64,000 nt of DNA. Origin: Candidatus Multivoradales bacterium (lineage in GTDB: Bacteria; Acidobacteriota; Thermoanaerobaculia; Multivoradales; Multivoraceae). A program made the position numbers and the translations under genes. Of this stretch, positions 1,673-5,076 are shown one piece after another. Position 1 is the stretch's first letter. Each line of letters starts with the position of its first letter. The DNA lies in assembly GCA_965223325.1 (NCBI GenBank), contig CBDCWI010000001.1, positions 1,536,001 to 1,600,000 on the forward strand, written 5' to 3'. The notes under the pieces are model-generated. The model was not told the origin of the DNA. It saw only the letters and a program-made list of their open reading frames with translations, and searched no databases.

Positions 1673-2143
1673 ATGACCACCCGTGACGGGGCGGCCGTCC
1701 GCGTCCCGCCGCCGCTCGTCTTCCTAAGCCTCCTGATTGCCGGCTTCCTGCTGCAGCGGCTGGTCTACTCGCTGCCGCTTCCAGTGCCGCGCCTTCCTCG
1801 ATTGCTCATCGCGGCCATCCTGGGAGCAACCGGCTTCTACCTCCTGGGTAGCGCGGCTTCCCTGTTCAAGAAGACCGGGCAGGACCCGAAGCCATGGGTC
1901 AACACGCCCGAGATCGTAAGCACCGGCATCTACCGGCTCACACGTAACCCGATGTACGTAGGCATGGCGCTCATCCAGCTGGCATGCGGGCTGTGGCTCT
2001 CCAACCCGTGGATCATCGCGCTCCTCCCGCTCTCAATGTTTATCGTCCAGCAAACCGCGATTCGCCACGAAGAGGCCTATCTCGAGGAGAAGTTCGGCGA
2101 GGGCTACCTCGAATACAAACGCCGCGTACGCCGCTGGCTCTAG
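1673..2143 (+). CDS. Isoprenylcysteine carboxylmethyltransferase/PEMT family membrane methyltransferase
   Basis: GIYRLTRNPMY, EEAYLEEKFGEGYLEYKRRVRRWL. Confidence 0.9.
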   Translation: MTTRDGAAVRVPPPLVFLSLLIAGFLLQRLVYSLPLPVPRLPRLLIAAILGATGFYLLGSAASLFKKTGQDPKPWVNTPEIVSTGIYRLTRNPMYVGMALIQLACGLWLSNPWIIALLPLSMFIVQQTAIRHEEAYLEEKFGEGYLEYKRRVRRWL

Positions 2144-2208
2144 CCCCTGGTCACTCAGGCGCCGTAACCGGTCGCCTGGTGAGGCACAATAGTCCCGTCC
2201 TGACGTAT

Positions 2209-2703
2209 ATGAACGAAAGAACCACGATTCCTGCCCCGAAGAAGGCGACCCTCTCGCCGCTTCGCCATAGCGCCTGCTTCACGTGTGCGGGGCTCCTGGC
2301 ATGCGCGAGCCTCGTGTTTTGCGGCCTCGATGGGCTCATGTCTGGCCACGTCCACGTGCAGGATGGTTCGACACTCCACCACCGGCACCTTTTTGCCGGT
2401 GCGCATCAGCATGATGGCGAAGACGACCAGCACGCAGCAGACGAGTCCGGCAGGCTAGCTACGGAGACCGCCGACCCCGTAGAAGACCATCACGGTTCGG
2501 AGAAAGAAGCTCCAGAGAGCAGCAAGAGCACGATCTCGACGCTCGAACTCACCAACAGTCTCCAGGCGGAGACTCTCTCGGGCTCCCTGCTCGCCGCACT
2601 GCCTCTTGTCGCATTGCGCGTCGAGGTACGCCGCTCCGCCGCCCCCACTCGGTTCTACTTGACCGAGGGGCCACGGCCGCCGCCGCAAGCGCGACCTGGC
2701 TGA
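2209..2703 (+). CDS. His-rich exported protein with C-terminal GPRPPP; candidate regulatory leader of the TonB receptor
   Basis: Hydrophobic Cys-containing N-terminal segment, GHVHVQDGSTLHHRHLFAGAHQH, acidic linker, RPPP five codons before the stop; start chosen at ATG 2209. Confidence 0.65.
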   Translation: MNERTTIPAPKKATLSPLRHSACFTCAGLLACASLVFCGLDGLMSGHVHVQDGSTLHHRHLFAGAHQHDGEDDQHAADESGRLATETADPVEDHHGSEKEAPESSKSTISTLELTNSLQAETLSGSLLAALPLVALRVEVRRSAAPTRFYLTEGPRPPPQARPG

Positions 2704-2910
2704 CGTCGCCGGGCTCTCCCAGGCCTTCTTGCAGTCCCGGCCGCCCCCAACCTAAAGGTATTCGTGTGTCCCCGTCGCCAGACGACAGGGGACGACTTGG
2801 CATGCCCTCTCTCTGGGCGGCATAGCCGCATGCAGCTCGATCCTCCAAACGGCGGATCTGACCTCCGTTGCGCTAGACGTCCCGCTAGCGCTTCAAAAGA
2901 GAAGATCATC

Positions 2911-5076
2911 ATGAGTATGGACTTAGCTCCCCCTCCTACCGGCAGACCCCTGCCTCAGATTCGGTTGCCGCGAGGTGTCGCGATTCTCGCGGCCCTGGTC
3001 TTTGCAAACGGCATCCTCCTGGCACAGGAATCCGAGCCAGAAACCGCCGAGTCTCCAGGCGACGTACAGGAATCGCCCGGAGAAACTGATGGGTTCGGCG
3101 ACGAGATCGACGTGGTCGAGCGGGGGGACGACATGGTCGGCATCGCCGTTTCGGCTACCGAGGGCAGCACCGGACGCGTCGACTTGAGCCGCCGCGCCCT
3201 CTTGCGCTCAGGCGACGTCGTCGAGACGGTGCCAGGCATGGTCGCGACGCAGCACAGCGGGGGCGGCAAAGCGAACCAGTACTTCATTCGCGGCTTCAAT
3301 CTGGATCACGGCACCGACTTCTCCATCTCCGTCGACGGTGTGCCAGTCAACATGCCGACCCACGGTCACGGCCAGGGTTACGCCGACATGAACTTCCTGA
3401 TTCCCGAACTGATTCAGCGGGCCCGCTATCGCAAGGGCCCCTACTGGGCAGGGGTCGGCGACTTCTCGACCGCCGGCAGCCTCGACATCGACCTGATCGA
3501 CCGTCTACCAGAGTCGTTGATTTCGGTGAGCGCTGGCAGCAACTCTTACGGTCGACTTCTGTTCGCCGACAGCTTCGAGGTCGAGAATGGAACCTTGCTG
3601 GCGGCAATCGAAGGTTTCCACGACGACGGCCCCTACGATCGCCCCGAAGACTTCAGGGTCGCGCGCGGCTTGCTGCGCTACAGCCAGCGAAACGGCGACC
3701 GGCGCTTCAGCTTGACCGCGATGGGCTACGACGGCGAGTGGCTTTCGTCTGACCAGATTCCGCAGCGGGCAGTCGATGATGGTTCGATCTCGCGCTTCGG
3801 CCTGATCGACCCCGGACCTCGCGGCACGACCCAACGCTTCAGTCTGTCGGCAGAGGCGCTTCGCCCGCGCGAGAACGGTGGCGACCGCCTTTCGGCCTAT
3901 GTCATGTCCTACGACTTCTCGCTGGTCGGCAACTTCACCTACTTTCTCGACAACCCGGAGCTCGGCGACCAGGTGCTCCAGCGCGACGACCGCTTCGTAG
4001 CCGGCGCCGAGCTCTCGCGAAGCTGGCTCACCAGGCTCTGGCGTCGGCCACTCGAGGTGACCTCCGGAGTCCAAGTGCGCTACGACGACCTCACCAACCA
4101 ACTCGACCGTACGCGCGTTCACGAGGACCGCATTCAGCTCTTCGCTCCGGTCTTGCGCGCCGACGTCGAGCTGATCACCGGCGGCCCCTTCATCGAAGGC
4201 AGCATGCGTGTCAACGACTGGTTCCGGTGGTCCGGCGGAGTCCGCCTAGACGGCTACCAGGCGGACGTGGCGAGTGATCGCGCGGTCAACTCGGGGAGCG
4301 TCTCGGACACACTCATCAGTCCCAAGCTGAGCCTCGCCTTCGGTCCCTGGAAGCAAACCGAGATCTACGTCAACTACGGGCGTGGATTTCACAGCAACGA
4401 TGCCAAGGGAGCTGTGATCACCGTCGACCCCAGCACGGGCGATGCCGCCGACCGCGCCGAACCGTTGGTCGCGACCGAAGGCTTCGATGTCGGCTTTCGC
4501 ACCACCGCCATCCCTGGCCTGCAGAGCACCGTGACTCTGTTCAGCCTCGAGCTCGGCTCCGAGCTGATTTTCGTCGGCGACGCTGGCGTCACCGAGGCCG
4601 GTCGACCGAGCCGTCGCCTGGGCGTCGAGTGGACCAATCACTACCAGGTGAGTCCGGTCCTCTGGACCGACTTCGACGCCACCTGGACCGACGCTGAGTT
4701 TCGAGACGACGACCCCGCCGGCCGCGAGATCCCAGGCTCAGTGGGCAGGACCCTTGCCGCAGGGCTGTCGTTTTCCAACGACGGCCCCTGGTCAGCGTCA
4801 CTGCGCTGGCGCTACTTCGGCGACATTCCCCTGGTCGAAGACGGCTCGCGCATCTGGTCGAGTAGCGCAACGTTCAACGGGCAAGTCGGCTATCGCTTCG
4901 AAAACGGTCTCGAACTATCGCTTGAAGGGTTCAACCTGACCGATCGCGAGGACGACGACGTCCAGTACTACTACGCCTCACGGCTGCCCGGAGAGCCGGC
5001 CGACGGCATCGAGGACATTCACTTTCACCCCCTACCGGAGCGGTCCCTTCGACTGTCCCTGACCTGGCAACCCTGA
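2911..5076 (+). CDS. TonB-dependent receptor (probably for metal uptake)
   Basis: Signal peptide, plug motif QHSGGGKANQYFIRGFNLDHGTDF, THGHGQGYAD, barrel-like C-terminus HFHP..RSLRLSLTWQP. Confidence 0.92.
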   Translation: MSMDLAPPPTGRPLPQIRLPRGVAILAALVFANGILLAQESEPETAESPGDVQESPGETDGFGDEIDVVERGDDMVGIAVSATEGSTGRVDLSRRALLRSGDVVETVPGMVATQHSGGGKANQYFIRGFNLDHGTDFSISVDGVPVNMPTHGHGQGYADMNFLIPELIQRARYRKGPYWAGVGDFSTAGSLDIDLIDRLPESLISVSAGSNSYGRLLFADSFEVENGTLLAAIEGFHDDGPYDRPEDFRVARGLLRYSQRNGDRRFSLTAMGYDGEWLSSDQIPQRAVDDGSISRFGLIDPGPRGTTQRFSLSAEALRPRENGGDRLSAYVMSYDFSLVGNFTYFLDNPELGDQVLQRDDRFVAGAELSRSWLTRLWRRPLEVTSGVQVRYDDLTNQLDRTRVHEDRIQLFAPVLRADVELITGGPFIEGSMRVNDWFRWSGGVRLDGYQADVASDRAVNSGSVSDTLISPKLSLAFGPWKQTEIYVNYGRGFHSNDAKGAVITVDPSTGDAADRAEPLVATEGFDVGFRTTAIPGLQSTVTLFSLELGSELIFVGDAGVTEAGRPSRRLGVEWTNHYQVSPVLWTDFDATWTDAEFRDDDPAGREIPGSVGRTLAAGLSFSNDGPWSASLRWRYFGDIPLVEDGSRIWSSSATFNGQVGYRFENGLELSLEGFNLTDREDDDVQYYYASRLPGEPADGIEDIHFHPLPERSLRLSLTWQP

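Follow-up and report, generated by a model that had tools for sequence, protein, structure and literature searches.

The stretch of DNA that was analysed (the window, 64,000 nucleotides from a Candidatus Multivoradales bacterium) carries a small open reading frame followed on the same strand by a gene for a TonB-dependent receptor. The components of the locus can be assigned as follows.

2209 to 2703, forward strand: leader open reading frame, 164 amino acids with a TGA stop, from an unnamed family of six-histidine leaders with R[G/A/P]PP
2269 to 2328, forward strand: hydrophobic segment, residues 21–40, predicted membrane anchor or signal
2347 to 2412, forward strand: six-histidine motif H47xH49-x8-H58xH60-x3-G64-x-H66xH68, predicted short β-hairpin and candidate metal site
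2413 to 2532, forward strand: acidic, histidine- and proline-containing linker, of variable length as judged from the His-to-Arg span in the family
2533 to 2562, forward strand: short hydrophobic stretch, fixed at Arg–47 to –39 by family hydropathy registered on the arginine
2674 to 2685, forward strand: Arg-Pro-Pro-Pro, predicted ribosome-arrest motif (RGPP, RAPP or RPPP in the family), on the basis of conservation and of ApdA/ApdP mutagenesis (PMC12992588)
2704 to 2910, forward strand: 207-nt spacer, C-rich in its 5′ part, containing several hairpins and a weak A-rich Shine-Dalgarno (SD) sequence but no intrinsic terminator
2911 to 5076, forward strand: TonB-dependent receptor of the HSGGGKANQ / HGHGQGY type, of a predicted Ni/Co class, with Pfam Plug and barrel domains; start at 2911 or 2917

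All the elements of the leader described in a first-pass annotation are present, that is a signal or transmembrane segment, the HVH-x7-HHRH...HQH cluster, a linker, and RPPP five residues before the stop. That annotation ran the element from 2209 to 2910; the frame itself ends at 2703, and the rest of that span is spacer. Its gap of about 205 nt to the receptor ATG measures 207 nt, placing the ATG at 2911. The N-terminus is basic ahead of the hydrophobic segment (mean Kyte-Doolittle value 1.86 over residues 21–39), which suggests an N-in/C-out orientation. There are histidines at 47, 49, 57, 58, 60, 66 and 68, with others at 20, 75, 94 and 95, and after R156-P-P-P159 come QARPG and the stop codon. 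The cysteines at 23, 26, 32 and 38 fall within the hydrophobic segment, and none of them is conserved. AlphaFold2 predicts a helix from 16 to 44 (block pLDDT ∼90) and strands at 47–51 and 54–58 forming a short hairpin, at low confidence (pTM 0.32 in both models), and leaves the remainder unstructured; in neither of these two models is the Arg–47 segment docked on the hairpin. The leader has no match in Pfam or NCBIfam at E ≤ 1. Its nearest clusters in the ESM Atlas are unnamed (0.94), with one auto-named as a cobalt transporter family and CzcI at 0.92; recognition is below the reliable range here and serves as a lead only. Positions 2100–3300 are tiled by contigs from runs X1 and X2 with no differing letter; these runs come from one study and possibly from the source sample, so that their agreement argues only against assembly error. 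No consensus σ70 promoter was found in the leader or the spacer, and no conserved operator was seen by eye 5′ of the leaders at 25 loci. Many leaders have by eye a TAGAAT- or TACAAT-like hexamer ∼5–20 nt from the start and no clear SD; in the window it is CACAAT at 2185–2190, 18 nt before the leader ATG. This arrangement suggests near-leaderless transcripts.

How well is the leader conserved? The receptor is present in 20 of 101 related genomes, including that of the window. Searching upstream of 21 receptor 5′ ends with the six-histidine pattern alone gave a reading frame on the sense strand at 12, and none on the antisense strand. All 12 of these frames end in R[G/A/P]PP, a motif to which the selection was blind. 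The background is 457 of 54,765 frames (0.83%) with R[AGSP]PP in the last 18 residues, for stop-to-stop frames of at least 70 amino acids in the window's own genome. Such conservation was the check that the first-pass annotation had proposed, and both the histidine cluster and R-x-P-P are indeed conserved in leaders of orthologous receptors. Of the other nine receptor loci, six lack a leader, two have one that does not fit the strict pattern, and at one a contig end truncates the locus. The codons under R-x-P-P vary synonymously, and thus selection acts on the peptide. The leader is real and well conserved.

The family extends well beyond these relatives. A profile built from 14 leaders matches in 23 of 401 genomes of the class. 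The 13 loci outside the seed alignment all end in R[GAP]PP; 11 precede the same receptor, and at two the genes that follow are nucleoside-hydrolase-like/FmdE, a second kind of receptor and a member of the ZnuA family. A wider profile matches in 69 of 300 genomes of the order, where the 16 top-scoring new loci all end in R[GA]PP and all precede the same receptor. Taking class and order together, the leader is the first gene, on the same strand, before this receptor at 27 of 29 new loci. Another group of 27 order-level matches is weak, partial and confined to one genus; the two inspected are both without RxPP, and the group is probably a different membrane protein with a histidine loop. At the level of the phylum there are matches in 15 of 401 genomes. 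Two new loci precede the same receptor; at four distant ones the next gene is for an efflux-type outer-membrane factor, and the arginine is absent from two of these leaders. A search of the full library gave 131 representatives, seed proteins included, with RGPP in 68, RAPP in 44, RPPP in 16 and none of these in 3. Since the profile contains the motif, the counts of R[GAP]PP among its matches are partly circular, and the 12 frames chosen blind to the motif provide the clean test.

We aligned 107 of the 131 sequences, the 24 left out being mostly long, truncated or atypical. H47, H49, H58, H60, H66, H68, R156, P158 and P159 are invariant in all 107, and G64 is found in 99. None has a CxxC after the first conserved histidine. 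Hydrophobic columns are conserved at the N-terminal segment. The distance from the last conserved histidine to the arginine ranges from 66 to 114 residues, and is greater in two long members. When the sequences are registered on the arginine, without alignment, the mean hydropathy of the family rises from –1.8 at Arg–49 to between +0.7 and +1.8 at –47 to –45. The fixed position of this element, set against the variable His-to-Arg span, argues that it is not the metal site. The RPPP variants cluster on the leader tree, with 5 changes compared with at least 9 in 1000 shuffles, suggesting few origins.

The closest parallels are with the copper-sensing arrest leaders CruR and CutF (PMC9426467; PMC9973294). 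Like CruR (Bp2923 of Bordetella pertussis), the leader is a small first gene of exported type with a C-terminal R-x-P-P and a TonB metal receptor downstream, and both have a long spacer, 162 nt in CruR and 207 nt here (PMC9426467). Each has a conserved element ∼45 residues before the arginine; in CruR this is a CxxC at a fixed spacing of 45 from RAPP (PMC9426467), whereas here it is hydrophobic. The two differ in that the candidate sensor here is six histidines at a variable 66–114 residues from the arginine, without CxxC, in that the receptor is of the predicted Ni/Co type, and in having RPPP instead of RAPP. Membership of DUF2946 (PF11162) was considered and rejected; there is no match at E ≤ 1 and a genome search with PF11162 misses the locus, while just one of the 107 family members matches, at E 0.046. 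The lack of CxxC and the variable His-to-Arg spacing place the leader outside DUF2946, and by analogy it likely works like CruR and CutF without belonging to that family. With CutF of Rhodobacter capsulatus it shares an export signal and a metal motif outside the membrane (PMC9973294; bioRxiv 10.1101/2025.02.05.636593), and a terminal run of three prolines (PEPEGPPPRL in CutF, EGPRPPP here). However, CutF has CxxxC, and turns on a detoxifying oxidase through an SD hairpin (PMC9973294). Ozturk 2023 described CutF-like clusters 14 and 17 as His-only and lying beside HupE/UreJ genes, and suggested Ni/Co binding (PMC9973294). Compared by description only, these share the His-only character; they are under 150 amino acids against 164 here, and precede HupE/UreJ genes, whereas our leader precedes a TonB receptor.

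The terminal motif connects the leader to a further group. Fujiwara et al. 2025 described RAPP and RGPP upstream frames before TonB receptors across Gram-negative bacteria, encoding small proteins with a localization signal, a terminal R-x-P-P and the receptor as the next gene, all as found here (PMC12992588). The six-histidine family has the traits of RAPP-like arrest leaders, namely an N-terminal localization signal and a C-terminal R-x-P-P in which arginine and Pro-Pro are invariant and the second position is G, A or P. In ApdA and ApdP mutants proline at that position retains the arrest in part or almost in full; RPPP in ApdP is near wild type in B. subtilis (2.4 versus 1.9 units), and weaker in ApdA (12.9 versus 3.0 units) and, for ApdP, in E. 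coli (491 versus 152) (PMC12992588). As only RAPP and RGPP were extracted in the survey, it does not cover natural RPPP leaders, and the text passages and supplement searches of the paper gave neither the six-histidine family nor a link to nickel (PMC12992588).

Judging from these sequence features, the leader is very probably a regulatory arrest leader, and it probably senses metal through its histidines. It might instead monitor secretion or the envelope in the manner of SecM/ApdP, with the stall released by export force alone and the histidines serving only to aid folding, or it might be a plain metal chaperone anchored in the membrane, with no regulatory role for its proline tail. Anchor, linker and RxPP do reproduce the layout of ApdA, ApdP and SecM, PPP is an EF-P-dependent staller, and loops rich in histidine are found as well in ordinary membrane proteins to which the profile gives weak matches. 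Yet the genes downstream are metal transporters and not sec genes, the six histidines are invariant while the linker is free to vary, and a chaperone would have no need of the invariant arginine. We consider either role highly unlikely.

Which metal might be sensed? The receptor is 41% identical (682 aligned positions, E 7e-167) to the one beside nikR on the Afipia plasmid pHCG3B, which we infer to be pHCG3_081. Its best match among 79 named loci, at 52%, is in a Thermoanaerobaculia genome, which makes this acidobacterial class the probable one of the host, and its closest solved structures are BtuB and PqqU only (E ∼1e-9 to 3e-6). Five plug and barrel histidines are kept in 60–62 of 62 receptor sequences. 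In a tree of these 62, the receptors with six-histidine leaders form one clade with support 1.0, which also holds two leaderless receptors and a truncated locus, and those with RPPP leaders group at 0.87. pHCG3_081, Bll6948, Daro_3944 and RPA_4757 form cluster 987 of predicted Ni/Co TonB receptors (PMC3400609), and Ni/Co as the substrate of the Bll6948/pHCG3_081 class is a prediction. The likeness to that cluster lies in full-length homology and in the nickel-gene context of the relatives; the difference is that a NikR gene or nickel-permease operon stands beside the gene there, and a leader frame here, NikR not being found.

That context recurs. The relative on Afipia pHCG3B lies opposite nikR and after hypDEB, that on Cupriavidus pHG1 ∼4.4 kb after hoxN, and that on a Bradyrhizobium plasmid directly after hupN. 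NikR genes also adjoin relatives at L053 and L077, a NicO gene at L041, and hupE/ureJ at L003, L029 and L044, with a fusion to the receptor at L045. Among 58 neighbour proteins chosen from 138 candidates there were two NikR, one NicO and four HupE/UreJ (one receptor-fused), most of the others being unrelated. The first-pass annotation had left the metal as Ni, Zn or Co; the nikR, hoxN/hupN, hupE/ureJ and hyp neighbours narrow this to Ni/Co, which from such contexts is our best guess. We regard nickel or cobalt, rather than zinc, as reasonably probable.

The genome of the window (98.2% complete) has LarC, two HupE/UreJ-type genes, two DtxR-type regulators, Rho, and a His-loop permease like the one beside nikR and the receptor at L077. 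NikR, Fur-family proteins including Zur, and CbiC were not found there, with the controls working, and neither were Ni-SOD, [NiFe]-hydrogenase or urease. Ni-SOD, LarC or [NiFe]-hydrogenase is present in 22 of 26 leader-bearing genomes and NikR in 3, while four have none of the four nickel markers (one of these only 73% complete). LarC is also common in relatives without the receptor. Six genomes with a leaderless receptor have no NikR either, so lack of NikR does not predict a leader. Fur is found in 31 of 38 genomes tested, its absence being confined to the window's own genome and six others (two genera), and a family-wide rule that the leader replaces a missing Fur or Zur was rejected on this count.

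Alternating histidines bind zinc well, and the leader might accordingly sense zinc (or manganese) in place of the missing Zur. The absence of a Fur-family gene and of hydrogenase, urease and Ni-SOD from the window's genome would fit with this, as would the two family members that head a ZnuA-type operon. We nonetheless rate it as very unlikely, given that relatives of the receptor repeatedly adjoin nickel genes and that most leader-bearing genomes do carry Fur-family genes. Moreover, the ZnuD-like receptor of the same genome has a different leader. This second leader (L203, G000:C1:1372614-1373096, reverse strand) has a hydrophobic segment, histidines and CAVCH, a CxxC, ∼45 residues before RGPP; it precedes an 811-codon frame matching ZnuD (E 1.6e-63), and was not matched in the genome search with PF11162. 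From its sequence it is a candidate zinc-type arrest leader, and zinc seems to be served separately by this receptor. The ZnuA-type operons and efflux-type outer-membrane factors found behind leaders indicate that the metal may differ by locus.

How might such a leader work? We lean, with somewhat better than even confidence, towards the conserved, membrane-targeted six-histidine R-x-P-P leader being an arrest switch that keeps a predicted Ni/Co TonB receptor on when metal is scarce. The N-terminal helix would engage Sec during translation. The lengths of the ribosomal tunnel and the translocon are the basis for placing the histidine motif beyond the membrane at the point of arrest. With at least 66 residues between the last conserved histidine and the arginine, the hairpin would have passed the inner membrane by the time the ribosome gets to RPPP and, like CutF, would sense metal in the periplasm. 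When metal is absent, the ribosome would stall at RPPP; it would thereby cover the C-rich RNA at the end of the leader against Rho, and transcription could cross the spacer. As with CruR, binding of metal would fold or tension the chain, ending the pause so that termination can follow. In this picture the hydrophobic stretch fixed at Arg–47 to –39 would lie at the tunnel exit or in the translocon, and may transmit the pull. From the logic of uptake and the behaviour of CruR we infer that metal would switch the importer off. A more specific version is distinctly tentative: that the hairpin is a nascent-chain sensor of periplasmic Ni(II) that gates the RxPP stall and replaces NikR across an acidobacterial lineage, with metal uptake at the outer membrane in the window's genome governed by two arrest leaders of different tuning, six-His for Ni/Co and CxxC-His for Zn.

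The spacer bears on how a stall would be read out. The several hairpins noted in the first-pass annotation are real but modest (2670–2930 folds at z = –2.0, and 5 of 200 shuffles fold as well), and do not cover the receptor's ribosome-binding site in the model. Rfam gives nothing at its gathering threshold (best E 1.1), and leader and spacer are free of intrinsic terminators. The C and G fractions just after the motif are 0.40 and 0.22 in the family; positions 2711–2770 of the window contain 23 C and 15 G, a moderate excess, and C-richness at the motif is partly due to the proline codons. The presence of Rho, the C-rich stretch and a long spacer like that of CruR, with SD masking unsupported, favour Rho termination at this locus, which we put at a little under an even chance. 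The same leader could alternatively act on translation initiation, the stalled ribosome unmasking the receptor SD as in SecM or CutF. A predicted SD partner does lie at or just after the RxPP codons in ∼10 of 25 loci (L081, L083, L117, L118, L124 and L125 among them), and the own pairing of SD and stall window beats shuffled pairings marginally (235/5000), a family signal that is weak because the loci are related and the start codons were chosen by hand. In the window, however, the SD is near-open in both states, the modelled opening energy being 3.0 kcal/mol free and 3.3 kcal/mol with a stalled ribosome, and among the 25 loci it is here that SD and stall window pair most weakly. SD masking is thus not supported as the output at this locus, where it is unlikely, and some relatives may use it.

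A search of the text of mainly open-access literature brought up neither an arrest peptide that responds to nickel nor a description of this leader family. The concept is nevertheless published, both for RAPP/RGPP leaders before TonB receptors and for His-only CutF-like leaders suggested for Ni/Co, and RPPP has already been tested in print as a permissive variant (PMC12992588). The surprise is therefore limited, and the idea less new than first judged. Its interest is that CruR and CutF, the two metal-sensing arrest leaders characterized in the literature consulted, employ cysteines and copper, and the six-histidine family provides a cysteine-free candidate. Its six invariant histidines, a diversity of more than 100 sequences, a linker free to vary and a hydrophobic element at a fixed position make non-copper sensing, and the effect of metal binding on the stall, directly testable. 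Natural RPPP leaders exist, and surveys restricted to RAPP and RGPP miss them.

Some individual loci are noteworthy. At L081 and L100 (G010:C7:3163147-3169077) the whole leader-receptor unit is duplicated in tandem, both copies with RPPP, and there is a Fur-family gene ∼6 kb downstream. At L099 and L101 (G006:C37:81169-83105) the receptor is in two frames behind an intact leader, through either a real break or an assembly error. Six-histidine leaders at L119, L122, L152 and L153 (G409 and G253) stand ahead of genes for a secreted fusion (nucleoside-hydrolase-like/FmdE), a TonB receptor of another kind and a binding protein of the ZnuA family. Distant His-rich leaders at L167, L168, L169 and L172 precede IhpA/TolC-like outer-membrane factors, two ending in RGPP and two in SPAPP without the arginine. 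A membrane protein of ∼250 amino acids with an HxHxH-x4-HxHxH loop after a helix (L170 and L171; G000:C1 near 544300) scores weakly with the leader profile, and L077 has a protein like it after nikR and the receptor. Lastly, the same receptor family is also preceded by a second type of leader, with a hydrophobic segment, HLATHRxDHTH, a His-rich linker and HGRxSxAHF ∼45 residues before RGPP. Four of these were tested and have no Pfam match at 1e-8; they occur in other Acidobacteriota at L006, L023, L024, L026, L032, L033, L036 and L038, and in Polyangiaceae at L069.
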